In this document: piece by piece, positions 10,818 to 62,256 of the stretch | Layout: each line of letters starts with the position of its first letter | Numbering within the stretch: position 1 is the first letter of the stretch | DNA from: Escherichia coli | Lineage (GTDB): Bacteria > Pseudomonadota > Gammaproteobacteria > Enterobacterales > Enterobacteriaceae | Strand: one strand, 5' to 3' | DNA length: 64,000 nt | Assembly (NCBI RefSeq): GCF_024502345.1 | Contig: NZ_JALDNN010000001.1 | The notes under the pieces: model-generated | Database searches by the model: none | The model's input: only the letters and a program-made list of their open reading frames with translations | What the model was told of the DNA's origin: nothing | Position numbers and translations under genes: made by a program

Positions 10818-11000
10818 TCACAACCCGAAGATGTTTCTTGCGATCCATCATCGTGTTGCGAAAATTTGAGAGACTCACGAACAACTTTCGTTGTTCAGTG
10901 TTTCAATTTTCAGCTTGATCCAGATTTTTAAAGAGCAAAACTTCGCAGTGAACCTTTTCAGGTACACTCTGAAGTATTTTTTATTTAATCACTACAGAGA

Positions 11001-11076
11001 TGGTGGAGCTATGCGGGATCGAACCGCAGACCTCCTGCGTGCAAAGCAGGCGCTCTCCCAGCTGAGCTATAGCCCC
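11001..11076 (-). tRNA. alaT: tRNA-Ala (UGC), spacer tRNA
   Basis: Reverse complement GGGGCTATAGCTCAGCTGGGAGAGCGCCTGCTTTGCACGCAGGAGGTCTGCGGTTCGATCCCGCATAGCTCCACCA. Confidence 0.95.
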
Positions 11077-11118
11077 ATAACATGTAGTTAAAACCTCTTC
11101 AAATTTGCCGTGCAAATT

Positions 11119-11195
<77 letters not shown>

Positions 11196-11263
11196 GTAGA
11201 GGTTTTACTGCTCATTTTCATCAGACAATCTGTGTGAGCACTGCAAAGAACGCTTCTTTAAGG

Positions 11264-31714: not shown

Positions 31715-31975
31715 ATACAACTCCTCTGTGAATCGGTTTAGTCAGAAGAAGCAAAAAGACACTTTACCGAAGGGTTTAACATTTTTTCGTGATACTCATC
31801 ACCATGACGCAAATGCGTTGCATAAATTTACCCACCAAAAGTGATGCAAATCACATAAATCACTCTTCATTCTGCAGGACTGCATAAAAGATGAGCCGAT
31901 TCAGGCAATGTGATTTGTTGCATGCTGACTATAGTTAACATTGCGCAACATTTTTATAAGGGTACGGAGAATACC

Positions 31976-32788
31976 ATGGCAACAACACAACAATCTGGAT
32001 TTGCACCTGCTGCATCGCCTCTCGCTTCGACCATCGTTCAGACCCCGGACGACGCGATTGTGGCGGGCTTCACCTCTATCCCTTCACAAGGGGATAACAT
32101 GCCTGCTTACCATGCCAGACCAAAGCAAAGCGATGGCCCACTGCCAGTGGTCATTGTAGTGCAGGAAATTTTTGGCGTGCATGAACATATCCGCGACATT
32201 TGTCGCCGTCTGGCGCTGGAGGGGTATCTGGCTATCGCACCTGAACTTTACTTCCGCGAAGGCGATCCGAATGATTTTGCCGATATCCCCACGTTGCTTA
32301 GCGGTCTGGTAGCAAAAGTGCCTGACTCGCAGGTGCTGGCCGATCTCGATCATGTCGCCAGTTGGGCTTCCCGCAACGGCGGCGATGTTCATCGTTTAAT
32401 GATCACCGGATTCTGCTGGGGTGGACGTATCACCTGGCTGTATGCCGCGCATAATCCACAGCTAAAAGCCGCAGTGGCGTGGTACGGCAAACTGACGGGC
32501 GACAAGTCGTTGAATTCACCGAAACAACCTGTTGATATCGCAACCGATCTTAACGCGCCGGTTCTCGGCTTATATGGCGGTCTGGATAACAGTATTCCGC
32601 AGGAGAGCGTTGAAACCATGCGCCAGGCGCTGCGGGCTGCTAATGCGAAAGCAGAGATTATCGTGTACCCGGATGCCGGGCATGCATTCAACGCTGATTA
32701 TCGCCCGAGCTATCATGCCGAATCTGCGAAAGATGGCTGGCAGCGTATGCTGGAATGGTTTAAGCAGTATGGTGGGAAGCGGAGTTAG
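31976..32788 (+). CDS. ysgA: dienelactone hydrolase-family protein YsgA
   Basis: ORF 31910..32788; the start is MATTQQSGF at 31976; alpha/beta hydrolase motif GFCWGG. Confidence 0.85.
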   Translation: MATTQQSGFAPAASPLASTIVQTPDDAIVAGFTSIPSQGDNMPAYHARPKQSDGPLPVVIVVQEIFGVHEHIRDICRRLALEGYLAIAPELYFREGDPNDFADIPTLLSGLVAKVPDSQVLADLDHVASWASRNGGDVHRLMITGFCWGGRITWLYAAHNPQLKAAVAWYGKLTGDKSLNSPKQPVDIATDLNAPVLGLYGGLDNSIPQESVETMRQALRAANAKAEIIVYPDAGHAFNADYRPSYHAESAKDGWQRMLEWFKQYGGKRS

Positions 32789-33181: not shown

Positions 33182-33657
33182 ATGAGTGATATTATTTACC
33201 TGACCATAACCGGAGAACAACAAGGATGTATTTCCTCTCGTTGTGGAACGAGCGCATCAATAGGTAATCGCTGGCAGATTGGCCATGATGATGAAATCTT
33301 CGCGTTCTCGCTCTCTAATAGTATTACGAATACAGGCAAAGGGTCATAATTGCATGGCCTTAGTTTCTGTAAATTGATTGACAAAAGCTCCCCGTTACTT
33401 ATTAACGCTATTAACAATAACGAGCAGTTGTTCATGGAGTTTGACTTCTATCGGATCAATAGGTTTGGTCGATGGGAGAAATATTACAACATTCAACTCC
33501 GCGGCGCGCTCTTATCAGCAATCAATCACCTGTTTACTGAGAACAATCTGGATACAGAAGCCATCACTGTCAGTTATGAATATATACTCTCCAGGCATCT
33601 GATTGCTAATACTGAATTTAGTTATTTGGCATTTCCCGATAACTACAACCGTCTGTT
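33182..33657 (+). pseudogene. Hcp-family (T6SS tube protein) domain, N-terminal part of a disrupted Hcp-fused toxin gene
   Basis: ATG at 33182 gives MSDIIYLTITGEQQG...; the frame hits TAA at 33347-33349 and resumes in the same frame with the Hcp-like stretch FCKLIDKSSPLL. The reading frame then runs into the IS903 end at 33658. Confidence 0.7.
33649..33657. repeat. IS903 target-site duplication, left copy (CCGTCTGTT)
   Basis: The identical 9-mer recurs at 34715-34723, immediately outside the two inverted repeats. Confidence 0.9.
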
Positions 33658-34714
33658 GGCTTTGTTGAATAAATCGAACTTTTGCTGAGTTGAAGGATCA
33701 GATCACGTATCTTCCCGACAACGCAGACCGTTCCGTGGCAAAGCAAAAGTTCAAAATCACCAACTGGCCCACCTACAATAAAGCCCTCATCAACCGTGGC
33801 TCCATAACTTTCTGGCTGGATGATGAAGCTATTCAGGCCTGGTATGAGTCAGCAACACCTTCTTCACGAGGCAGACCTCAGCGCTATTCTGACCTTGCCA
33901 TCACGACTGTGCTGGTCATTAAACGCGTATTCAGGCTGACCCTGCGCGCTGCGCAGGGCTTTATTGATTCCATTTTTTCTCTGATGAACGTTCCGCTACG
34001 CTGCCCGGATTACAGCTGTGTCAGCAGGCGGGCAAAGTCGGTTAATGTCAGTTTCAAAACGCCCACCCGGGGTGAAATCGCACACCTGGTAATTGATTCC
34101 ACCGGGCTGAAGGTCTTCGGTGAAGGCGAGTGGAAAGTCAAAAAGCATGGCCAGGAACGCCGCCGTATCTGGCGTAAGCTGCATCTCGCCGTTGACAGTA
34201 AAACACATGAAATCATCTGCGCTGACCTGTCGCTGAACAACGTTACGGACTCAGAGGCCTTCCCCGGGTTAATCCGGCAAACCCACCGGAAAATCAGGTC
34301 AGCCGCCGCCGATGGCGCTTACGATACCCGGCTATGTCACGATGAACTGCGGCGTAAGAAAATCAGCGCGCTTATCCCTCCCCGAAAAGGTGCGGGTTAC
34401 TGGCCCGGTGAATATGCAGACCGTAACCGTGCAGTGGCTAATCAGCGAATGACCGGGAGTAATGCGCGGTGGAAATGGACAACAGATTACAACCGTCGCT
34501 CGATAGCGGAAACGGCGATGTACCGGGTAAAACAGCTGTTCGGGGGTTCACTGACACTGCGTGACTACGATGGTCAGGTTGCAGAGGCTATGGCCCTGGT
34601 ACGAGCGCTGAACAAAATGACGAAAGCAGGTATGCCTGAAAGCGTGCGTATTGCCTGAAAACACAACCCGCTACGGGGGAGACTTACCCGAAATCTGATT
34701 TATTCAACAAAGCC
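33658..34714 (+). mobile_element. IS903-type insertion sequence (IS5 family), 1057 bp
   Basis: Terminal 18-bp inverted repeats GGCTTTGTTGAATAAATC (33658-33675, and reverse complement at 34697-34714); internal 322-aa ORF; flanked by a 9-bp direct repeat. Confidence 0.9.
33690..34658 (+). CDS. IS903-type DDE transposase
   Basis: 322-aa ORF matching my recollection of the IS903/IS102 transposase. Confidence 0.85.
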   Translation: MKDQITYLPDNADRSVAKQKFKITNWPTYNKALINRGSITFWLDDEAIQAWYESATPSSRGRPQRYSDLAITTVLVIKRVFRLTLRAAQGFIDSIFSLMNVPLRCPDYSCVSRRAKSVNVSFKTPTRGEIAHLVIDSTGLKVFGEGEWKVKKHGQERRRIWRKLHLAVDSKTHEIICADLSLNNVTDSEAFPGLIRQTHRKIRSAAADGAYDTRLCHDELRRKKISALIPPRKGAGYWPGEYADRNRAVANQRMTGSNARWKWTTDYNRRSIAETAMYRVKQLFGGSLTLRDYDGQVAEAMALVRALNKMTKAGMPESVRIA

Positions 34715-34723
34715 CCGTCTGTT
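34715..34723. repeat. IS903 target-site duplication, right copy (CCGTCTGTT)
   Basis: Exact 9-bp match to 33649-33657. Confidence 0.9.
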
Positions 34724-34753
34724 TATACCACGGCCAAAAACTAAAGCTGGTAA

Positions 34754-35395
34754 TGGTTCAAAACACTTAATAGTAAAGCGGTTGGCAGACTGCTTGCTGC
34801 TGGCGGCATATACAATGGGAATATCGAAGGATTCAGGGAAACAGCAGACAAGTTGGGGGGAGATGCACCTGCTGGTTACGATCAATTTATGGATAACAAA
34901 GGGTTACTCATCGCTGGTGCTTCAATAGTTGCTGGAGCAGTTCTGGGGAGAATGAGACTCCCTGATTTGGAATCACTTGAGCATTTCGGAGCCAGAGGAG
35001 CAGTATCAGGAAGACCATTTAATCCCGACCTTGCCGGTGGTCCAATAGAAAATCTGACGACAGATGGCGTAACAATCAACAGGGAAGGTATCGCTATTGT
35101 TGAAAAACACATAGCCAGATTTGGTCATGACCCTGTAAATGAAGTGATGATCAATAGACTGAAAGACATTGAGAAAGGAAAAATCCCCCCAGAACAAGTA
35201 GATCTTAACTTCTATACTCATGAGTGTCGGGAATATCAGCGTTACTGTAATCTTGGTTGGGAAACAGGACAACCTGATGGTGACGCAGGCTATGCACTCT
35301 GGAATCATACGCATACTGCTACTCTAGAAGATTATAAACTTAAGGGAGAACTTAATGACTTATACCACCAGGATGCACTTGACTATGATAACTGA
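34754..35395 (+). pseudogene. toxin-like C-terminal domain of the disrupted Hcp-fused gene (family not identified)
   Basis: Open frame of 213 codons after a stop at 34751; no ATG near its 5' end (the ORF track uses TTG at 34853). It begins with a Gly/Ala-rich linker (GRLLAAGGIYNGNIEGF...DKLGGDAPAGYDQF). It is in a different frame from the pre-insertion Hcp frame. Confidence 0.5.
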
Positions 35396-35630
35396 AACTG
35401 AAATTAACGTACTGAAAGTTATGGCTGAGAAAGATATAAACTGGAACTGGATGAATCTCGATCGCACACTATCCATAAGGCAAATTCCAGGATTCGGTAA
35501 TGTTGTTAACATTGTTAACAAATTAGCTAACGAGGGTTTGGTTATTATTGAGGATAGCGGACATAAGTCTATGCCTCACTACCACGTTACTGAAAAGGGA
35601 TACAATTTCGTGAAAAGTGAGAATAAATAA
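35355..35630 (+). CDS. putative cognate immunity protein (small cytoplasmic protein)
   Basis: 91-aa ORF with AAGGGAGAA Shine-Dalgarno 6 bp upstream of the ATG at 35355; overlaps the 3' end of the toxin-like ORF (alternative ATG at 35385 overlaps its TGA). Confidence 0.5.
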   Translation: MTYTTRMHLTMITETEINVLKVMAEKDINWNWMNLDRTLSIRQIPGFGNVVNIVNKLANEGLVIIEDSGHKSMPHYHVTEKGYNFVKSENK

Positions 35631-35914: not shown

Positions 35915-38176
35915 TCATCCCCGACGCAAATTCTGCGCCGCCTGCACCATGTTCGCCAGTGCCGCGCGGGTTTCTGGCCAGCCGCGCGTTTTCAGGCCAC
36001 AGTCCGGGTTGACCCACAGGCGCTCTGCCGGAATGCGTTTTGCCGCTTTCTTCAGCAAGGCTTCAATCCATTCCACGCTCGGTACGTTTGGCGAGTGAAT
36101 GTCATAGACGCCTGGACCGATTTCATTCGGATAATCAAACTCTTCAAACGACTCCAGCAACTCCATGTCGGAACGCGAGGTTTCGATGGTGATGACGTCT
36201 GCATCCAGTGCCGCAATCGAATCCATGATGTCGTTGAACTCGCAATAACACATGTGAGTGTGGATTTGTGTGTCATCTTTCGCCACGGCGGCGTTGATAC
36301 GGAAGGCCTCCACGCCCCACTGGAGATATGCATCCCAGTCGCTACGACGCAGCGGTAAACCTTCGCGCAGCGCCGGTTCATCAATCTGGATGATGCCAAT
36401 TCCTGCGGCTTCCAGGTCCGCCACTTCATCACGCAGCGCCAGCGCAATTTGTTTGGCGATGGTTTCACGGCTGACATCTTCACGCGGGAACGACCAGCAG
36501 AGAATGGTCACCGGGCCAGTCAGCATCCCTTTCACCGGTTTATCAGTCAGAGATTGCGCATACTTCGCCCACTCCACGGTAATCGGTGCCGGGCGGCTAA
36601 TGTCACCAATGACAATCGGTGGCTTCACGCAGCGGGAACCGTAGCTCTGTACCCAACCGTTTTGCGTAAAGACAAATCCGTCGAGGTGCTCGCCAAAGTA
36701 TTCCACCATGTCATTACGCTCGGCCTCGCCATGTACCAGCACATCCAGTCCCAAACGTTCCTGTTCAACAATGGCCTGCTTGATATGTTCCGCAATGCCC
36801 GTGCGGTAGTTGTTGGCGTCGAGATTACCCTTTTTGAAATCCAGACGCAGGGTACGAATTTCCGTGGTTTGCGGGAAGGAACCAATCGTGGTGGTCGGCC
36901 ACGCTGGCAGTTTAAAACGCGCACGCTGGGCTTCGGCACGCACTTCATAGACATTCGCACGCTGGCTGTCCTGGGCGGTGATCGCCGCCAGACGCTTTTC
37001 TACTGCCGGGTTATGTACACGAGTAGAGTGACGACGCGCCTGAATTGGAGCGCTCCACTCTGCCAGAGCTGCCGTATCACCACTGTTCAGCGCATCTCGC
37101 AGCAGTGCCAGTTCATGACATTTTTGCAGGGCGAAGGCAAACCAGCTTTTCACTTCTGCATCAAGACGCGTTTCCACGCTCAGGTCGATGGGGCTGTGCA
37201 GCAACGAGCAGGAAGATGCCACCCACAAATCACGTTTGCCGACAATGTCCTTAATTTGCGCATATTTCTCAGTAAGATCGGCGCGCCAGACGTTACGACC
37301 ATTGATCAGACCCGCAGACAGCAGCCAGTCAGAAGGCAGGCGCTTGTGCAGTTCAACAACGTCATCTTTACCATGTACAAGGTCCACATGCAGCCCCTGA
37401 ACAGGCAGCGCAGTAATCGTGTCGAGATTTGGCGTTACGCCTTCAAAATAGGTGGTCAGCAGCAGTTTCACCTGTCCCTGGAGCGCGTCGTAAGCGGGTT
37501 TGTATGCGTCCAGCCACGCCTGTGGTAGTTCCAGTACCAGCGCGGGTTCATCAATCTGTACCCACTCGATGCCGCGTTTCGCCAGTTCTGCCAGCACTTG
37601 CTGATAAACCGGCAGAATGTCGTTCAGCAGGCTAAGGCGGTCAAACTGTTCACCTTTCACTTTCCCCAGCCACAGGTAAGTAACCGGCCCCAGCAGCACA
37701 GGCTTAACGTTGTGGCCCAGCGCCAGCGCCTCGTCCACTTCCTCCAGCAGCTGCGTCCAGGTCAGTTTGAACTGTTGGCCTTTAACGAACTCCGGCACCA
37801 TGTAGTGATAGTTGGTGTTAAACCATTTGGTCATTTCCGCTGCCGCCGCAGGTTCGCCAGTCGGCGCACGTCCACGACCAATACGGAACAGGGTGTCGAT
37901 ATCTACCGAACCGTCTTTGTTCTGATGACGTGGCGGAACATTACCCAGCAGCAAACTGGTGGTCAGTACATGATCGTACCAGGCAAAATCGCCCACCGGC
38001 AGCAGGTCGATACCCGCTTGCTTTTGTTGATCCCAGTGACGAGCACGCAGTTCACGCCCTACTGTCAGCAGTTCTTCACGCGTGGAGTTCCCCGCCCAAT
38101 AACTTTCTTGCGCTTTTTTCAGCTCGCGACGCAGGCCAACGCGAGGGAAACCGAGGGTGTGATTCAATATTGTCAT
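35915..38176 (-). CDS. metE: cobalamin-independent methionine synthase
   Basis: 753 aa, begins [30 protein letters not shown]. Confidence 0.95.
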
Positions 38177-46539: not shown

Positions 46540-47007
46540 ATGTCTGCCGTACTGACCGCTGAACAAGCCCTGAAATTAGTGGGTGAGATGTTTGTTTATC
46601 ACATGCCATTTAACCGCGCATTGGGGATGGAACTGGAGCGTTACGAAAAAGAGTTCGCACAGCTGGCCTTTAAAAATCAGCCGATGATGGTGGGTAACTG
46701 GGCGCAAAGCATTTTGCACGGCGGAGTCATTGCGTCGGCGCTGGATGTCGCCGCCGGTCTGGTGTGCGTGGGAAGTACCTTAACCCGCCACGAAACCATC
46801 AGTGAAGATGAACTACGCCAGCGGCTATCGCGGATGGGGACCATTGATCTTCGCGTTGATTATCTGCGCCCAGGCAGGGGCGAGCGTTTTACTGCTACCA
46901 GTAGCCTGTTGCGTGCAGGCAATAAAGTCGCCGTCGCCCGCGTTGAATTACACAATGAAGAACAGCTTTATATTGCCAGTGCCACCGCCACCTATATGGT
47001 AGGTTGA
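46540..47007 (+). CDS. yigI: thioesterase-superfamily (hotdog) protein YigI
   Basis: ORF 46522..47007; the start is [12 protein letters not shown] at 46540 (155 aa). Confidence 0.85.
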
Positions 47008-47058
47008 AGACATAAAAGCAGGTAAACTGCTGTTACCAATTAAAAATGAGTATTCCCG

Positions 47059-47946
47059 ATGGATGCAAAACAAACGCGGCAGGGCGTATTACTCGCTCTT
47101 GCCGCTTATTTTATTTGGGGTATTGCGCCAGCATACTTCAAGCTGATTTACTACGTGCCCGCCGATGAAATCCTGACGCATCGCGTGATCTGGTCGTTTT
47201 TCTTTATGGTGGTGCTGATGAGCATTTGCCGCCAGTGGTCCTATTTAAAAACGCTGATTCAGACGCCACAGAAAATTTTTATGCTGGCAGTCTCTGCCGT
47301 GCTGATTGGTGGCAACTGGCTACTGTTTATCTGGGCGGTGAACAATCACCATATGCTGGAAGCGAGCCTTGGTTACTTTATTAACCCGCTGGTGAACATT
47401 GTGCTGGGGATGATTTTCCTCGGCGAGCGATTCCGCCGGATGCAATGGCTGGCGGTGATTCTGGCGATATGTGGCGTGTTAGTCCAGCTGTGGACTTTTG
47501 GTTCGCTACCTATTATCGCGCTGGGACTGGCATTTAGTTTTGCCTTCTACGGTCTGGTACGCAAGAAGATTGCCGTTGAAGCGCAAACCGGCATGTTAAT
47601 TGAAACCATGTGGCTGCTGCCCGTGGCGGCAATTTACCTGTTTGCTATTGCCGACAGCTCAACCAGCCATATGGGGCAAAACCCGATGTCGCTGAATTTA
47701 CTGCTGATCGCCGCCGGTATTGTCACTACCGTACCGCTGTTGTGTTTTACCGCCGCTGCCACGCGCTTGCGTCTCTCAACGTTAGGCTTTTTCCAGTACA
47801 TTGGCCCGACGCTGATGTTCCTGCTGGCTGTGACGTTTTATGGTGAAAAACCGGGTGCCGATAAGATGGTGACTTTCGCCTTTATTTGGGTGGCGCTGGC
47901 AATTTTTGTGATGGATGCGATTTATACGCAGCGTAGAAAAAGTTAA
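47059..47946 (+). CDS. rarD: EamA-family transporter RarD
   Basis: 295-aa membrane protein. Confidence 0.9.
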   Translation: MDAKQTRQGVLLALAAYFIWGIAPAYFKLIYYVPADEILTHRVIWSFFFMVVLMSICRQWSYLKTLIQTPQKIFMLAVSAVLIGGNWLLFIWAVNNHHMLEASLGYFINPLVNIVLGMIFLGERFRRMQWLAVILAICGVLVQLWTFGSLPIIALGLAFSFAFYGLVRKKIAVEAQTGMLIETMWLLPVAAIYLFAIADSSTSHMGQNPMSLNLLLIAAGIVTTVPLLCFTAAATRLRLSTLGFFQYIGPTLMFLLAVTFYGEKPGADKMVTFAFIWVALAIFVMDAIYTQRRKS

Positions 47947-47992
47947 GAATTAACATGGGTAGGCCGTTTAATGAGCCTACCCACTGACTTAT

Positions 47993-48337
47993 TTATCTTT
48001 TTTTGAAAAAAATTAAGATAAGAAAAAGAACAATATTTGTTACAGGAAGTACCCCCAAAACTCCCCAGTACTTACTCCATCCTAGAGACATCGTATATCT
48101 ACCAAGGATTTGACAAAACCCAAAACTTAACCCTATACCTATACTTCTTAAATTTAATGTCGTAGTCAGGCTTAAAATAAATAGAACAAGGATGGTAATA
48201 GCCCACCACAATAACCATGCCTTAACAAAATCAGATTTTTTGCTGTAAGGTTCTTTACCCAAGAACAACTGCCAAAAGTTACCATTCCCCATATAGAATC
48301 CATTCCCCAAGATATTGTTTATAGAATAAAAATACAT
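47993..48337 (-). CDS. hypothetical small inner-membrane protein (possibly the yigG equivalent)
   Basis: 114-aa ORF with two or three hydrophobic segments in an AT-rich stretch; strand and identity not verified. Confidence 0.35.
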   Translation of the reverse strand: MYFYSINNILGNGFYMGNGNFWQLFLGKEPYSKKSDFVKAWLLWWAITILVLFILSLTTTLNLRSIGIGLSFGFCQILGRYTMSLGWSKYWGVLGVLPVTNIVLFLILIFFKKR

Positions 48338-48616
48338 TCCAATTATATTTAATTAAAATATACCCCATCAATAAAAACTTACACACTCTAAATTACTACT
48401 GTATAGTTATCAATGCAAAGACTGCTATATTGCATATATATATGCAAACCTCATAATTCAGGTAATATATATATTCAAAACAATTATATATAAAAAACAA
48501 TGTAAAAAATATTCAAATCATCCATCAGAAATATATTCTACCCATCCAGGCTTGAGCATTTATCACGCTTTCAGTTCATAATCTATACATTAACATCATG
48601 GTCAATATTAATAACT

Positions 48617-48895
48617 TTGAATGATATCAACCTGGCTTTGAGTTTTATTCTGGTTATTAATAATACCTATGTAAATATCAATATTGGAGCAAAAAGAATA
48701 AGAGATACTGGATGTAAGGCAATCTACTTTGTATTGATTTCATTGGGTTTGACACTTTTTTCTATTATCTCTGCAGCAATTGAAGGGGTGAGATGTGAGT
48801 CATTAAGCGTCCAACTCAACGTGGCATGGATATTATTCACAACAATTATGTTATCTGCGATTCCCTCGGCTAAAATGTCGCTGTCAGCACACTAA
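48617..48895 (+). CDS. hypothetical small membrane protein (possibly the yigF equivalent)
   Basis: 92-aa ORF, hydrophobic, AT-rich context. Confidence 0.3.
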   Translation: MNDINLALSFILVINNTYVNINIGAKRIRDTGCKAIYFVLISLGLTLFSIISAAIEGVRCESLSVQLNVAWILFTTIMLSAIPSAKMSLSAH

Positions 48896-48920
48896 CTTAC
48901 TCACAGCGACATCGTATAGT

Positions 48921-49047
48921 TACAGCCAGTTCTTGCGCTTAAAGTACAGATACGGTGCCAGGCCCGCGAGGATCATAAAGATAATCGCGCCTGGGTAGCC
49001 GAAACTCCACTTCAGTTCTGGCATAAACTCAAAGTTCATGCCATAGC
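48921..49047 (-). pseudogene. displaced duplicate of the corA 3' end (last ~40 codons)
   Basis: ~127 bp, ~94% identical to the corA 3' end at 51419-51545; encodes ...[43 protein letters not shown] with no upstream corA body. Confidence 0.8.
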
Positions 49048-49209
49048 TGGAGGCAATCGGCGTAGGAAAAAGTTTCCTAATCGGTAAATTCAATATTTTG
49101 TTATTAACAATGAGCAAGACCAATCATTAACGACGTTCTCTTCAGAGATGTAATGAAAAAATGTGAAGTGTACTTCTTTTTTAAATATTTTTTTACCCTA
49201 GCATTTGTT

Positions 49210-49218
49210 CTCAAATTG
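49210..49218. repeat. IS1 target-site duplication, left copy (CTCAAATTG)
   Basis: Identical 9-mer at 49987-49995. Confidence 0.9.
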
Positions 49219-49233
49219 GGTAATGACTCCAAC

Positions 49234-49737
49234 TTATTGATAGTGTTTTATGTTCAGATAATGCCCGATGACTTTGTCATGCAGCTCCACCGATTTTGAG
49301 AACGACAGCGACTTCCGTCCCAGCCGTGCCAGGTGCTGCCTCAGATTCAGGTTATGCCGCTCAATTCGCTGCGTATATCGCTTGCTGATTACGTGCAGCT
49401 TTCCCTTCAGGCGGGATTCATACAGCGGCCAGCCATCCGTCATCCATATCACCACGTCAAAGGGTGACAGCAGGCTCATAAGACGCCCCAGCGTCGCCAT
49501 AGTGCGTTCACCGAATACGTGCGCAACAACCGTCTTCCGGAGCCTGTCATACGCGTAAAACAGCCAGCGCTGGCGCGATTTAGCCCCGACGTATCCCCAC
49601 TGTTCGTCCATTTCCGCGCAGACGATGACGTCACTGCCCGGCTGTATGCGCGAGGTTACCGACTGCGGCCTGAGTTTTTTAAATGGCGGAAAATCGTGTT
49701 GAGGCCAACGCCCATAATGCGGGCGGTTGCCCGGCAT
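49234..49737 (-). CDS. insB: IS1 transposase InsB reading frame
   Basis: 167 aa, begins [16 protein letters not shown]. Confidence 0.9.
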
Positions 49738-49931
49738 CCAACGCCATTCATGGCCATATCAATGATTTTCTGGTGCGTACCGGGTTGAGAAGCGGTGTAA
49801 GTGAACTGCAGTTGCCATGTTTTACGGCAGTGAGAGCAGAGATAGCGCTGATGTCCGGCGGTGCTTTTGCCGTTACGCACCACCCCGTCAGTAGCTGAAC
49901 AGGAGGGACAGCTGATAGAAACAGAAGCCAC
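49656..49931 (-). CDS. insA: IS1 InsA
   Basis: 91 aa, begins [42 protein letters not shown]. Confidence 0.9.
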
Positions 49932-49986
49932 TGGAGCACCTCAAAAACACCATCATACACTAAATCAGTAAGTTGGCAGCATCACC

Positions 49987-49995
49987 CTCAAATTG
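49987..49995. repeat. IS1 target-site duplication, right copy (CTCAAATTG)
   Basis: Exact match to 49210-49218. Confidence 0.9.
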
Positions 49996-50121
49996 ATATT
50001 GAGCTTAAATATAACCAAGGAAAATGTAAATGAATAACACATTACTTCCATCAATTAATATTCCCTGTACACTTTTCGAAACTATTAGTTTATTTGATGA
50101 TTATTCTGCTGATGATATGCA

Positions 50122-50145
50122 ATATGGTGATATGGTGATATGGTA
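50122..50145. repeat. 8-bp tandem repeat (ATATGGTG x3, last copy imperfect) spanning the start codon of ORF 50140
   Basis: atatggtg atatggtg atatggta; each unit contains an ATG, and only the third is in frame with the long ORF. Confidence 0.8.
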
Positions 50146-50886
50146 GAACAAGATTTTCTCTCACTCGGCCTAAGCGATATCTCAGCAAAAGTTGATCCTT
50201 ACAGACTTATTAAATACCATTTCCCTAGCCCAGGTTCTATTAATGTTGCTTTTAGTGCCTCAAGTTCCGGAACAAAAATATCACAACGTGAATGCACTGA
50301 TATTTTATTTGCAGAAATGAAAGAACTAGCAAAAATGTTTTCCTTTTTTGGACAATATAAAACACTTATCGAAGATCTGATTGAACATTTTAGATATGGA
50401 AATGGCAGCAATTTTCATAGCCAACAATTAAATTTATCTTTTCATGAAAAAATAAATAAATATGGTTATAATAGTCCAATACGAATAATCAAAGAATGTA
50501 TCGAAAATGGCATTAATTCAACTCCCTCGACAGGATACCAACCTCTTATCCTGCAAAGCATTAAAACCAAATTACTTTCATCAAGACTAAATAAATTTAA
50601 TGACTTCGAGGACAGTTTTAATGGCTTAGGAATCAGTGTTCATGATATTTCAGCTCAAAAAATATCTCTTTTAAGTTTTCAAAAATACGCTATAGGATGG
50701 AGTGCAACAATTCATTTTGTAGCACAGGACCACTTCGGTCTTGATGTAACTGATATCAAAAACAAGACTTACAGCAAATATAGATTTTTTCGCATATGGT
50801 TCTTTTTACAACGGCATAAAGACTTTGCTTTCAAACCTTTTTTCACCAATTTTAACACTATCGAAAGAATCGAAAATTATCTATGA
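50140..50886 (+). CDS. hypothetical protein, 248 aa, no signal peptide (candidate effector/toxin of a two-gene module)
   Basis: Long ORF in AT-rich DNA; its stop overlaps the next ORF's start (ATGA at 50883-50886). Confidence 0.5.
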   Translation: MVEQDFLSLGLSDISAKVDPYRLIKYHFPSPGSINVAFSASSSGTKISQRECTDILFAEMKELAKMFSFFGQYKTLIEDLIEHFRYGNGSNFHSQQLNLSFHEKINKYGYNSPIRIIKECIENGINSTPSTGYQPLILQSIKTKLLSSRLNKFNDFEDSFNGLGISVHDISAQKISLLSFQKYAIGWSATIHFVAQDHFGLDVTDIKNKTYSKYRFFRIWFFLQRHKDFAFKPFFTNFNTIERIENYL

Positions 50887-51374
50887 AAAGCAAACTCCAG
50901 AAAATTATATTATGTTTATTTCTTCTATGCTGCATCTATAATTTATGGACATTGCGTCCTGTACAGATTTTGTATACATACTCTGATGCTGGCAATTCAG
51001 TCTTTCTGGTCGTTGATCATCTGCCATGGACTGACAGCGATAAAATAAATTGGTATCTGAAGCATCAGAATGAAATTAAAAATCAACATCCCCTACCAGA
51101 AGGTAGTTGGCATACCTGGTATGTCATTGATATCGGTAATGGCTTCACTGACTATAAAAAATATATCGAAGGGCCGTATGAAGATCTCTACTGTTTCCCG
51201 ACAATTAAGAGCAATGATAATTGCATCGTGAAAAATTACTTAATGGTTATTAATGAATACCCTTATCGTAACACTCATATTGTTATTAACGATTTTACTG
51301 AGTATCAATTAACACAAGAAAATAAAATAGAGCGAGTTTTCAATCCGCATGACTTTAAAAAAGACAATTTTTAG
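50883..51374 (+). CDS. hypothetical exported/membrane-anchored protein, 163 aa (candidate immunity partner)
   Basis: N-terminal MKSKLQKIILCLFLLCCIYNLWTL is a signal or anchor sequence; translationally coupled to the upstream ORF. Confidence 0.5.
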   Translation: MKSKLQKIILCLFLLCCIYNLWTLRPVQILYTYSDAGNSVFLVVDHLPWTDSDKINWYLKHQNEIKNQHPLPEGSWHTWYVIDIGNGFTDYKKYIEGPYEDLYCFPTIKSNDNCIVKNYLMVINEYPYRNTHIVINDFTEYQLTQENKIERVFNPHDFKKDNF

Positions 51375-51415
51375 AAATAAGCCGGATAAAAAAATAGCTT
51401 TATCCGGCACTCATA

Positions 51416-52366
51416 TTACAACCAGTTCTTCCGCTTAAAGTACAGATACGGTGCCAGGCCCGCGAGGATCATAAAGATAATCGCGCCTGGGTAGCCGAAA
51501 CTCCACTTCAACTCTGGCATAAATTCAAAGTTCATCCCGTAGCTGGAAGCCACCAGCGTCGGTGGCAGGAACACCACGGATACCACCGAGAAGATTTTGA
51601 TGATGCGGTTCTGCTCGATGTTGATAAAGCCCATCGCCGCCTGCATCAGGAAGTTCACCTTCTGGAACAGGGATTCGTTATGCGGCAGCAGGGATTCGAT
51701 ATCTCGCAGGATTTCACGCGCCTGCTCCAGTTGCCCACCCGGTAAACGCGCCTTGCGTACCAGGAAGTTGAGCGCACGCTGGGTATCCATCAGACACAGG
51801 CGAACTTTCCAGCCGATATCTTCCAGTTCCGCCAGCGTGGAGAGCGCCTCATCGTACTCATCGCCCTGATGCCCTTCCATAATTACCCGGCTCAACTGCT
51901 CCAGATCGCTGTAGATATTTTCAATTTCATCTGCCAGCTGTTCGATTTTGGTTTCGAACAGATCCAACAGCAGCTCGTAGGCGTTACCGTCCACCATTGA
52001 CTGGCTACGGGCGCGCATACGATACAGACGGAATGCAGGCAGTTCACGCTCACGCAGAGTAAACAGACGACCATCACGGATGGTAAATGCCACAGTGGAG
52101 TTACCGGCGTGATCTTCCGCATCTTCAAAGAAGAAGAAGGAGTGAATATGCAGGCCGTCATCGTCTTCAAAGAAACGTGCCGATGCTTCGATGTCTTCCA
52201 GTTCCGGGCGGGTTGCCAGGCTCTGGCCAAGTTCAGATTGTACGCGCAGTCGCTCGTCGTCGTCCGGTTCGACAAGATCAATCCATACTGCATTTACAAG
52301 GGGTTGTGACTCTTCGACTTCCAGCCGGGTCAGTCGGTTATTTTCCAGTTGAAATGCGCTCAGCAT
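51416..52366 (-). CDS. corA: magnesium/cobalt transport protein CorA
   Basis: ORF 51416..52381; the start is [16 protein letters not shown] at 52366 (316 aa); GMN motif (YGMNF) and two C-terminal TM helices. Confidence 0.95.
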
Positions 52367-52735
52367 GACCGGGACTCCCAATGCTTAAAATATCGGACAG
52401 TTCGGTGGGCACACAGAAACAAATTGGGTTTCAGACCATTAAACAGCCTGACTCAGCGCGACGGGAAAAATTGAGGTCGCTGACAACCGCTAAGGCTATC
52501 AGCAAAAAGGGATAGCCTTAGGAGTTGATCCTGGATGACAGGATAGTGAGGCAGTATCTACTGGGTGTGTCCAAGGCGAATGTCCTCTTAGAGTGATCGT
52601 GCGCGCATGTTACGCCAGCAAAATTTTGCCGTCAACACGCAACAGAACACCACAGAACAATAGTTGAACTTCGCGCTTTTTGGTACTCGTCAAGGTCGCT
52701 AACAGGATAAAAAAATCCAACATCCAGGACCTATA

Positions 52736-53500
52736 ATGGCGCATCGGCTACTCATTGGTAAAGGAATGATCACCTTGAATCTCAAACGGATTTTTCTCAC
52801 CCTCACCTTACTTCCCTTGTTTGCTGTTGCCGCTGATGATTGCGCACTCTCAGATCCGACGCTGACCGTACAGGCGTATACCGTTAATCCTCAAACAGAG
52901 CGGGTGAAAATGTACTGGCAAAAAGCTAATGGCGAAGCGTGGGGAACGTTACATGCTCTGCTGGCGGATATGAATAGTCAGGGTCAGGTGCAGATGGCGA
53001 TGAACGGCGGCATCTATGATGAAAGCTATGCGCCGCTCGGTTTGTACATCGAAAACGGTCAGCAGAAGGTGGCGTTAAATCTCGCTTCAGGTGAAGGGAA
53101 TTTCTTTATCCGTCCTGGCGGCGTGTTTTATGTCGCGGGAGATAAAGTCGGCATCGTTCGTCTGGATGCCTTCAAAACCAGTAAAGAGATTCAGTTTGCG
53201 GTGCAGTCAGGGCCAATGTTGATGGAAAACGGTGTAATTAATCCGCGTATTCATCCCAACGTCGCCTCACGCAAAATTCGTAACGGTGTTGGGATTAATA
53301 AACATGGGAATGCCGTGTTTTTGTTGAGCCAGCAGGCGACAAATTTTTATGATTTTGCCTGTTATGCCAAAGCGAAACTGAACGTTGAGCAGCTGCTTTA
53401 TCTTGATGGCACGATTTCACATATGTATATGAAAGGCGGGGCAATCCCGTGGCAACGCTATCCTTTTGTCACCATGATTTACGTCGAGCGGAAAGGTTAG
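52736..53500 (+). CDS. yigE: DUF2233-family periplasmic protein YigE
   Basis: 254 aa with signal peptide; position between corA and uvrD. Confidence 0.8.
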   Translation: MAHRLLIGKGMITLNLKRIFLTLTLLPLFAVAADDCALSDPTLTVQAYTVNPQTERVKMYWQKANGEAWGTLHALLADMNSQGQVQMAMNGGIYDESYAPLGLYIENGQQKVALNLASGEGNFFIRPGGVFYVAGDKVGIVRLDAFKTSKEIQFAVQSGPMLMENGVINPRIHPNVASRKIRNGVGINKHGNAVFLLSQQATNFYDFACYAKAKLNVEQLLYLDGTISHMYMKGGAIPWQRYPFVTMIYVERKG

Positions 53501-59428: not shown

Positions 59429-60937
59429 GTGATCAACACCTCGCGCCAGGATGGCTTTATGCACTATCGCAATGTGGTTTGTTTGTTGGCTTGTTCATTG
59501 TTCTTATCGTCGGCATGGGGATGTCGGCTTGATGCACCTGAACATAATATTTACCAGAAACAGGGAAAAGGCGTGGTGTACCTGCGCCCTTATAAAGAAA
59601 CAAATCTTTCTCTACCTGACGTGAATTACAAGAGTTTGCGCCGTTTACCCAATTTATTAATAGACCCAACAACACAAGATGAATGGACTAAAGAACCACC
59701 TCTGACTGATCTAACAACCGACTACCTCTATGAAGGCGCACAAGCCTGGTATCCTCATTACTCCTGGCATAGCGATGGCCGCAATATCCTCTACGCGGGT
59801 GAAGTTGTGCAAAACCCGCCAGACAAACCTCCCGTCGATGTCGCCTCGTTCAAGGCATGAGGTGATTTTGCCGCAGATAAACACAGTCTCTATTTCGAAG
59901 GCAAGCGCACTGATGACAATGGTGGGGGAAATAGCGTAGATATCAAAACACTGCATCAGGTGGAATTCCGGCCTCCCTGGGATCCTGACTTACTGGGGCT
60001 GATATTACGTGACGCTAATTTCTTATATGTCGATGGGCATCGCCTCGCTGACCCCGAGAGTTTCCGTGTGCTGGCACAAAAGTCATGGGATCAAAGAGGA
60101 AAGTTTTCTACCGCGTTTAATCCCTGTGTGGCTATGCCATTTGGCCCCTGGGATACCCTGGCTCGTACAAGAACCAAAATCCTGATCAACGGCGAACAGC
60201 TTGATGCCGACCCGGACACTTTTTCCGTCGTGCGCTGGATGCCCGGCTCACTCTTGACCTGGCGTGATAAAAACGGGCTGCAGCGTAAAGTCCTCGACAA
60301 GGAAAATCTGGCGTGGGATGAAGATTTAACAAAGCACTGTCTGGATTTTTCTCTGCTGGAAAAGAAAGTGTTCTGGCGTCAGGGGCCTGACTGTAAACAG
60401 GAAGAATTACCGGGACTCGATCCGGAACAGTTTCACCCCATCAGTGATGCTGTCGCACAGTATCAGGACTCGCTTTATACCATCATCGAAACAGAGTCTG
60501 GTGACCGCAAGCTGGAGATCGTGAAACTTGATGATCCCAATCTTATTATCAACAAACGTTTCAACGCCGGGAAACGCCACGGCTATTTACTTACGCGTGC
60601 CGAAGGGTGGCCATACCATTCCGGTTTACACGTGTTTGAATCTGACGGACCGCTGATCTTACTGGATAACCGCTCTCCGGATGAACGCGAAGCCCATCTT
60701 AATGACCATCCCTTTTTGCGCAGATGGTATGCCCGCGATAACCGCTACGTTTACAGCTTTGATGGCGCGCAGCTCTGGCGATACCGCACCGCTGATCCGA
60801 AACAAGTTCGCTTAATCTGGAAGGAACAACATTCGGGATATGGCTACGGGGTAAATTACAAAACGGGATATCTGGACGGAAAAATTACCGATGACGGCGA
60901 ATTTATTCCTGCCCCGCGCAATGAGGCGACAAAATGA
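59429..60937 (+). pseudogene. secreted repeat protein (DKNYY-like repeats by eye), split by an in-frame TGA at 59858-59860
   Basis: ORFs 59429..59860 and 59960..60937 are in the same frame with only the one TGA between them; the joined product is paralogous to the downstream 440-aa ORF. Confidence 0.6.
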
Positions 60938-62256
60938 AGGGTCAAATAATCACAGTTGCACTCATCCTGTTGGGGCACACATGTCTGACACCTGCTGTAC
61001 AGGCCATAGGGTTCGACTATTACAATGATCACGGTGTTATGTCTTACGGTAAAGGTTATGGGGAGGATGAGAAAATCATTGCCCAATTTCCGAAGATGAA
61101 CAGAGCCGATTTGCGCCTTGTGACAAATATATCCGGGGAGCGGGAGTTAGTGGAAGGCTATATACCCACTGATGAAATAAGCATAAAAAATGAGGAATAC
61201 TACTGGGTGACAGACGGCCGCGTTATTCTCTGGCGTGGCAAAATCGTTAGCAATCCACCGGGAATACCCACTGTCGATATTGCCAGCTTTCAGGCTATGG
61301 GCCGCTTCGCGGTCGATAAATATAGCCTCTATTTTGATGGACAGCGCACCGAAAGTAATAGCGGCGCGTCACGTGTTGATCTGGCGACACTAAAAGCTAT
61401 CGAAGGTAACTCTACCACGCTGGTGGATAGTAAAAATCTCTATTTGTCCGGTCGACGTCAGGGGAGCAGCAGTAATGTTACTGTATTAGAAAAAAGATGG
61501 TGGGGTATTAATCCACGTCTTATGAGTGTAAACAGAAATTTGTATTCCAATGATCTGCTTATCCGCAGTGGGCAGAATATTTATTTAAATGGCGTTCACC
61601 TTACGGCGAATGCAGACTCATTTGAGATAATTCGCTGGATACCTCATTCACTGCTGGTTTTTCGCGACAACAATGGTCTGCATCGTTATCCCTTTGGGCA
61701 ATTATCTGGCAAAGCGATACCCGTAGATGATGACGTCTCTTTTGAAGTGGGGGAAAGTCGCGTTCGCTGGCGTAAACAGCTCTCGCCCGACCGTCAGTGG
61801 AGCAAGTGGATAGACCTACCGGATATTGAACCTGAACAATTTCATCTGATTACTGGCAATATTGCGCAGTATAAAGATCGTCTGTATGTAACAAAATTAT
61901 CGACTTTTGGTGAAGACCAGCTTGAAATAATTCCGCTGGATTCGCCAGACCTGGTCATTGATAACTCATTTAATGGCGGCAAACAACATGTTTACTTTAT
62001 CCGCCAATTACGGTCAAAGAGCGTGCAAATTATTCCAGTTAACGGCCCGCTAATTAAAAACGATCGCTTCGCTTATGACGATCGCAATGTTTATACCTGG
62101 ACCGATACAGAGGTCAGGATTACGCCATCCCCCTGTCCGGCGAAAACACGCGTCAGAGAAGAGAATGTGCGTGAACTTCACAACAGAGACATTATTATTC
62201 CGTTGACGGATGAATCATGCCAGAACGCAGCAGACGAGCAAACTTTGAAGCCCTGA
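60934..62256 (+). CDS. secreted repeat protein, paralogue of the upstream gene (DKNYY-like repeats by eye)
   Basis: 440 aa; Sec-type signal peptide MKGQIITVALILLGHTCLTPAVQA; start overlaps the upstream stop (ATGA). Confidence 0.6.
   Translation: MKGQIITVALILLGHTCLTPAVQAIGFDYYNDHGVMSYGKGYGEDEKIIAQFPKMNRADLRLVTNISGERELVEGYIPTDEISIKNEEYYWVTDGRVILWRGKIVSNPPGIPTVDIASFQAMGRFAVDKYSLYFDGQRTESNSGASRVDLATLKAIEGNSTTLVDSKNLYLSGRRQGSSSNVTVLEKRWWGINPRLMSVNRNLYSNDLLIRSGQNIYLNGVHLTANADSFEIIRWIPHSLLVFRDNNGLHRYPFGQLSGKAIPVDDDVSFEVGESRVRWRKQLSPDRQWSKWIDLPDIEPEQFHLITGNIAQYKDRLYVTKLSTFGEDQLEIIPLDSPDLVIDNSFNGGKQHVYFIRQLRSKSVQIIPVNGPLIKNDRFAYDDRNVYTWTDTEVRITPSPCPAKTRVREENVRELHNRDIIIPLTDESCQNAADEQTLKP

Follow-up and report, generated by a model that had tools for sequence, protein, structure and literature searches.

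An orphan DUF3289-DUF943 module between rarD and corA of Escherichia coli, very probably a type VI secretion effector-immunity pair with an inactivated toxin gene and an intact immunity gene

Between rarD and corA on an Escherichia coli chromosome lies an islet carrying a frameshifted gene of the DUF3289 family, followed by an intact gene of the DUF943 family, and these two genes are the subject of this analysis. They were studied within a stretch of 64,000 nucleotides (RefSeq assembly GCF_024502345.1, contig NZ_JALDNN010000001.1; hereafter the window), in which the gene order is polA ... recQ-pldA-yigI-rarD-[islet]-corA-yigE-uvrD-xerC ... cyaA and which is 98-99% identical to strain HCP4S3_I4 save for a few insertions and deletions. 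G+C content is 0.30-0.34 over positions 50000-51250, versus approximately 0.52-0.56 in recQ, corA, and uvrD. The original prediction had described two open reading frames (ORFs) here, of 248 and 163 aa, in AT-rich DNA and joined by an ATGA overlap at 50883-50886; the ORF list (in which the first ORF occupies 50140-50886 on the plus strand), the sequence itself, and the G+C values bear this out. The features of the locus, in order of position, are as follows.

48920-49066, minus strand: duplicate of the 3' end of corA, 147 bp; an "incomplete CorA" pseudogene in the RefSeq annotation of relatives
49219-49986, minus strand: insertion sequence IS1, 768 bp, with insA at 49656-49931 and insB at 49234-49737 (both minus); 100% identical to the IS1B copy of strain AR_0128
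50030-50146, plus strand: 5' stub of the DUF3289 gene, codons 1-36 and then Ile-Trp-stop (38 codons), carrying the motif DDMxxGD; from alignment with the intact allele and in-silico repair
50122-50137, plus strand: 8-bp tandem duplication, ATATGGTG twice (copies at 50122-50129 and 50130-50137), frameshifting the DUF3289 gene; from alignment with the intact allele of AR_0128
50140-50886, plus strand: 248-aa ORF, the out-of-frame remainder of the DUF3289 protein (residues 35-282), starting exactly at Met35; from profile matches and conserved columns
50883-51374, plus strand: intact DUF943 gene (candidate immunity gene), 163 aa, with an N-terminal transmembrane anchor and a predicted periplasmic alpha/beta domain; from a profile match and an AlphaFold2 (AF2) model
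51381-51408, no strand assigned: G+C-rich hairpin of 11 pairs between the convergent DUF943 gene and corA; from a consensus scan only
51416-52366, minus strand: functional corA (Mg/Co transporter), backbone gene and right border of the islet; an ORF, annotated as a 951-nt corA in relatives, 97% identical to K-12 corA

Both ORFs belong to named families, and the earlier failure to assign either protein reflected the limits of inspection by eye. The 248-aa ORF matches Pfam DUF3289 (PF11692; 9.6e-73, profile positions 30-270 of 272) and the NCBIfam model TIGR03034, "YPO3983 family protein" (386.5 bits, the cut-off being 156.45; positions 28-274 of 274). The 163-aa ORF matches Pfam DUF943 (PF06092; 1.8e-26, model positions 1-150 of 151) and shows 99% identity to a cluster of 2247 sequences. 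RefSeq labels the genes at this locus "YPO3983/DUF3289 family protein" and "DUF943 family protein." Since long ORFs are improbable in DNA of 31% G+C and both give strong profile matches, we judge them to be real genes and not chance ORFs.

The first ORF is nonetheless not a complete gene but a frameshifted remainder without its N-terminus, a point that the original prediction had missed. Alignment with the intact reference allele of strain AR_0128 (282 aa; WP_001059703.1) places the true start at ATG 50030, from which the reading frame ends at TAG 50144-50146, and when one copy of the 8-bp duplication is deleted in silico, a 282-aa ORF with 98.2% identity to the intact protein reappears. RefSeq marks the identical lesion as "frameshifted" in strain HCP4S3_I4. 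A 91-bp probe over the duplication found matches in 1702 complete genomes; among complete E. coli genomes the duplication matched the full probe in HCP4S3_I4 only, with one further record at least 99% identical over part of the probe. The lesion is thus rare and probably of recent origin. The site appears slippage-prone, as the intact allele already reads ATATGGTG-ATATGGTA there, and as a smaller possibility the duplication could switch the toxin reversibly on and off, with immunity staying on.

The frameshift separates a conserved N-terminal part from the rest of the protein. Residues D29, G33, and D34 of the DDMxxGD motif are nearly invariant across 39 stand-alone homologues, and all lie 5' of the 248-aa ORF; the motif is also conserved in 29 longer, fused homologues (consensus DxxAxDMxxGD), and the N-terminal region that is lost is modelled within the fold at a predicted local distance difference test (pLDDT) score of 94-98. 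The conserved C-terminal residues (VHD, QDHFGLDxxD, W..LQ, and KPF) are all present in the 248-aa ORF. No complete one-frame domain including DDMxxGD thus exists here, residues 1-34 being encoded on the separate stub. We therefore regard this gene, from its sequence, as a member of DUF3289 by descent but as a pseudogene, and loss of function of this allele is likely.

One set of observations weighs against this conclusion and would have the pair still working: the ORF that opens at ATG 50140, with GGTGAT 8 nt upstream of that codon, overlaps the stop codon of the stub, such that re-initiation after that stop could yield a 248-aa product (residues 35-282) that is toxic. Its C-terminal conserved residues would be complete, some fused homologues align by phmmer only from approximately residue 85 onwards, and a product of identical length has been called in 37 other assemblies. 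Set against this are the near-invariance of the three missing N-terminal residues, their retention in the long fused homologues when these are aligned together, the confident modelling of the missing region, and the RefSeq pseudogene call; a working, re-initiated toxin is accordingly improbable in our estimation.

Upstream of the lesion, the gene has been separated from its former flanking DNA by IS1, which the original prediction did not mention. The element is bounded by a 9-bp target duplication, CTCAAATTG, read directly at 49210-49218 and 49987-49995, with 43 bp between the element and the true start downstream. Strain HCP4S3_I4 has no IS1 at this site, its flanks overlapping there by 9 bp. 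Among the complete genomes in the collection, no single uninterrupted match to the locus query was found; hence, none has IS1 at this exact site. Separately, a promoter-like site at 49973-50000, with its -35 (TTGGCA) in the right end of IS1 and its -10 (GATATT) in target DNA, faces both genes, so that by consensus match IS1 may have created a hybrid promoter. The promoter scan returned 8 sites versus 7.9 expected by chance and, as this number is no higher than chance, no promoter can be called from it.

The DUF943 gene is intact. In the AF2 model, residues 2-24 form a hydrophobic N-terminal helix, in agreement with the anchor that had been proposed for this protein, and C104 and C114 are nearly invariant in the family. 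The hairpin between this gene and corA is probably, judging from its sequence, a terminator shared by the two. A small two-gene operon with overlapping genes might also suggest a classical cytoplasmic type II toxin-antitoxin (addiction) pair. Here, however, the toxin is encoded by the first gene, the immunity gene has outlasted the toxin, and the second protein is predicted to be membrane-anchored and periplasm-facing with two conserved cysteines; in the published test of a homologous pair, moreover, the toxin was sent to the periplasm, where the immunity protein is predicted to act (PMC11148199). An addiction pair thus scarcely merits consideration.

One line of support for an effector-immunity function comes from structure. 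The predicted structures of both proteins match both chains of a solved type VI secretion system (T6SS) effector-immunity complex, PDB 9JDI; its effector chain is also matched by sequence (phmmer, 1.3e-05), whereas the DUF943 sequence gave only chance matches to PDB chains (E of at least 0.14), the immunity chain, BtpiA, being found by fold comparison alone. Domain architecture points the same way: among the 29 longer homologues, a PAAR domain precedes DUF3289 in 9, DUF4280 in 1, and an eCIS core domain in 1, with others carrying M23 peptidase or peptidoglycan-binding domains. Experimentally, a PAAR-DUF3289 protein encoded in a T6SS operon of Yersinia pseudotuberculosis proves toxic when directed to the E. 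coli periplasm and makes the cells round up (Geller et al. 2024, PMC11148199). The cells are rescued by its DUF943 neighbour, the transmembrane helix of which spans residues 7-26 and the remainder of which is periplasmic (PMC11148199). An orphan DUF3289 protein of Aeromonas jandaei undergoes T6SS-dependent secretion and displays effector-immunity behaviour in competitions (Fridman et al. 2025, PMC12135965). In Klebsiella, clusters of DUF3289 and DUF943 are linked in 780 cases (PMC12469244). Toxicity, rescue, and T6SS-dependent delivery have been demonstrated in these homologues, not in the present allele. Taken together, we hold it very probable that the two genes make up an orphan antibacterial T6SS effector-immunity module of the DUF3289-DUF943 type, in which the toxin has been inactivated and the immunity gene is intact.

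The suggestion that the two ORFs form an effector-immunity pair acting in the periplasm is thus borne out by published homologues (PMC11148199, PMC12135965) and by the match to both 9JDI chains. The accompanying suggestion, that they might instead be an anti-phage defence module, would draw on nothing but their position in an AT-rich variable islet beside an insertion sequence. Neither protein matches any of 5027 PADLOC models, the toxicity published for DUF3289 is periplasmic, and both partners match a solved T6SS complex while their homologues are PAAR-fused; a defence function is therefore highly unlikely. A PADLOC scan of both proteins together with four neighbouring ORFs gave zero matches (E of at most 0.01), and anti-phage defence was rejected.

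The preferred effector-immunity reading also has points that count against it, two of which concern delivery. In the window, as at the Salmonella, Enterobacter, and Trabulsiella loci, no T6SS structural gene lies closer than 10 kb to the module, and this strain may lack a working T6SS. The locus shows no genetic linkage to T6SS genes, its neighbours being recQ, pldA, yigI, rarD, corA, and uvrD, and since the neighbours in the three other genera are likewise not T6SS genes, we consider the module to be an orphan one; T6SS delivery of this subfamily is thus deduced from its homologues.

Within the window, nothing else relates to T6SS except a degraded Hcp gene approximately 15 kb from the module. 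There, a second degraded T6SS locus occupies 33183-35630, between ysgA (31910-32788) and metE (35915-38176), where an Hcp/TssD gene starts at ATG 33183, meets a premature TAA at approximately 33348, and continues as an ORF at 33350-33688 (TIGR03344, 72 bits). It is interrupted by an IS5-like transposase ORF (33690-34658), where HCP4S3_I4 has an IS3, followed by ORFs of 180 aa (34853-35395; no match in a Pfam scan) and 91 aa (35355-35630). Together, these pieces could be what is left of a toxin fused to Hcp and of its immunity gene.

Model: An intact 282-aa DUF3289 effector, lacking a signal peptide, would be made in the cytoplasm, loaded on the spike or tube of a T6SS, and delivered by injection to the periplasm of adjacent Gram-negative cells, where it would damage the cell envelope. 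The N-terminal helix of the DUF943 protein would tether it to the inner membrane and leave its domain facing the periplasm, where the protein would bind and block the effector, thereby protecting the producer and its kin. In the present strain, the effector is split, and the 248-aa product, if any, would be without the conserved N-terminal motif. With the effector inactivated and the immunity gene intact, the locus most likely works as an immunity gene alone, against the numerous E. coli strains in which the toxin is still present; we infer that the DUF943 gene continues to be expressed.

As to the target, colicin M-like cleavage of lipid II is a proposed activity of DUF3289, weakly indicated. 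A Foldseek comparison of the effector model gave a weak match to PaeM (E 0.04, probability 0.69), whereas hhalign found no relationship between the DUF3289 profile and colicin M (probability 0.3%), for which the sequence used was confirmed to be identical to 2XMX. Barreteau and colleagues reportedly defined in 2010 the colicin M motif DxYDx5HR, comprising D226, Y228, D229, H235, and R236. This motif is absent from DUF3289, the invariant motif of which is D-H-F-G-L-D-x-x-D, and the searchable literature yielded no biochemical assay of the family. On these three grounds (no sequence homology, no colicin M catalytic motif, and no assay found), we tentatively raise the possibility, to which we would give clearly less than an even chance, that DUF3289 is an envelope-targeting enzyme with its own chemistry and not a lipid II hydrolase of the colicin M type; such chemistry could centre on the invariant QDHFGLDxxD and N-terminal DDMxxGD motifs.

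A related proposal would make the pair a colicin M-type bacteriocin with its immunity gene, released from the producer and entering cells through a receptor in the outer membrane without any T6SS. The effector is indeed about as long as colicin M, its partner is anchored and predicted to face the periplasm as Cmi does, and the module is present in laboratory B strains of E. coli, which presumably lack a T6SS. Nevertheless, sequence relationship to colicin M is lacking, the context is chromosomal and not plasmid, there is no lysis gene, the homologous domains are PAAR-fused, and a homologue is secreted in a T6SS-dependent manner (PMC12135965), such that a bacteriocin of this kind is very unlikely.

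The module is widespread: 2623 of 5426 complete E. coli genomes match it over at least 80% of its length, and among the full-coverage matches listed it directly abuts corA. Carriers include O157:H7, O111, E. coli C, and the B strains BL21(RP) and BLR(DE3). At least three configurations of the rarD-corA site occur in E. coli: yigG-yigF, as in K-12, in place of the module; rarD-effector-immunity-corA without extras, as in strains 25DN and WR3-3 (and in Salmonella); and the composite form of the window. Close relatives in Salmonella, Enterobacter, and Trabulsiella are likewise two-gene modules, and in the latter two genera the pair lies between genes for an Oxidored_FMN/Pyr_redox_2 protein and an FGGY kinase (Pfam labels), which we take to be fadH and lsrK.

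Several observations concern variation within the families. Upstream of the Enterobacter module is an orphan DUF943 gene (contig coordinates 9335-9829), and on a short metagenome contig two tandem DUF943 genes (1173-1634 and 1795-2238) follow a DUF3289 gene; accumulation of orphan immunity genes seems to be common in the DUF943 family. The contigs of two distant representatives, at 0.9-2.3 kb, were too short to show context. Among E. coli alleles, the effectors are 84.8% identical and the immunity proteins 92.1-98.8%, the reverse of what would be expected for a co-diversifying pair, and a very common effector allele (in at least 1000 contigs) has an extra Phe (EDSFFNGLG, 283 aa) compared with those of the window and AR_0128.

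The borders of the composite islet are set by corA. The two copies of its 3' end (48920-49066 and 51416-51562) are direct repeats that share 92% identity along their 147 bp, rising to 98% in the first 85 nt; they flank IS1 and the module on both sides, and were the only repeat found in a search of the locus; recombination between them would cleanly remove the module. An Rfam scan over 47000-53000 gave zero matches. The adjoining stretch at 47950-48900 is also strongly AT-rich (G+C 0.28-0.37), and no nucleotide similarity to K-12 yigG-yigF was found in it. It holds a 114-aa ORF on the minus strand (47993-48337), by appearance a membrane protein and a "hypothetical protein" of approximately 99 aa in RefSeq annotation, and a 92-aa ORF (48617-48895) with a weak match to NF008474/PRK11371 (22 bits versus a cut-off of 217).

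Elsewhere in the window, the lptM-cyaY interval (59429-62256) has ORFs of 143, 325, and 440 aa, with zero NCBIfam matches at E of at most 0.01. Approximately 2.5 kb of it is absent from HCP4S3_I4, which keeps only a remnant, a "DKNYY family protein" pseudogene. At approximately 10939-11212, in an rrn operon on the minus strand, the BLAST alignment breaks at a 16S-23S spacer unlike that of HCP4S3_I4, which carries tRNA-Glu, and spacer tRNA content may thus differ between the two.

Ultimately, the pair is already known, not the undescribed system first supposed: the families were published as such in 2024-2025, a homologous complex has been solved, and RefSeq names both proteins. What our analysis adds is (i) a toxin pseudogene beside an intact immunity gene, with IS1 located 43 bp from the true start; (ii) the wide occurrence of the module at the corA site, in its several configurations; and (iii) the homology of both proteins to the 9JDI chains. 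The locus exemplifies a common pattern in bacterial warfare, in which a toxin gene decays (here by a frameshift, with an insertion sequence nearby) while its immunity gene persists, presumably since roughly half of all E. coli strains still have the module and could deliver the toxin. As BL21 served as host in the published toxicity assays and the module occurs in B-derived strains, a resident DUF943 immunity gene should be considered when E. coli toxin alleles are tested.

Among known systems, the colicin M family (ColM, PaeM, syringacin M, and the pectocins M) resembles the pair in its proposed action at the periplasmic face, in cell rounding, in a weak and tentative fold resemblance to the C-terminal half of DUF3289, and in having an anchored, periplasmic immunity protein. 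Cmi is anchored facing the periplasm. The family differs in its DxYDx5HR motif, in place of which DUF3289 has QDHFGLDxxD and the N-terminal DDMxxGD, and in its receptor-binding and TonB-box domains, which the DUF3289 protein lacks; the fold of the DUF943 protein is BtpiA-like, with no likeness to Cmi detected.

Nearer in structure is BtpeA-CTD/BtpiA of Bacteroides fragilis (PDB 9JDI, 9JG8, and 9JG9; work cited in PMC13402684), in which the effector C-terminal motif (DHFGLD, FR.WF.LQ, and KPF) aligns with that of DUF3289. However, the effectors share just 21% identity and the immunity proteins 11%, BtpeA is a 608-aa multidomain protein of a Bacteroidota T6SS, and BtpiA has zero sequence match to DUF943. 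The A. jandaei protein (WP_042032936.1; PMC12135965) is, as here, an orphan DUF3289 encoded outside T6SS clusters with its immunity gene downstream, though that immunity protein has 95 aa and three transmembrane helices and is not a DUF943 member. T6EC1 of Y. pseudotuberculosis IP32881 (PMC11148199) differs from the E. coli gene in being PAAR-fused and encoded inside a T6SS operon, the latter being a stand-alone 282-aa DUF3289 without T6SS neighbours and, in this window, frameshifted. T6EC1/T6IC1 is otherwise alike, pairing the same Pfam families in identical order, with an effector that acts in the periplasm, and an immunity protein with an N-terminal transmembrane helix and a periplasmic domain.

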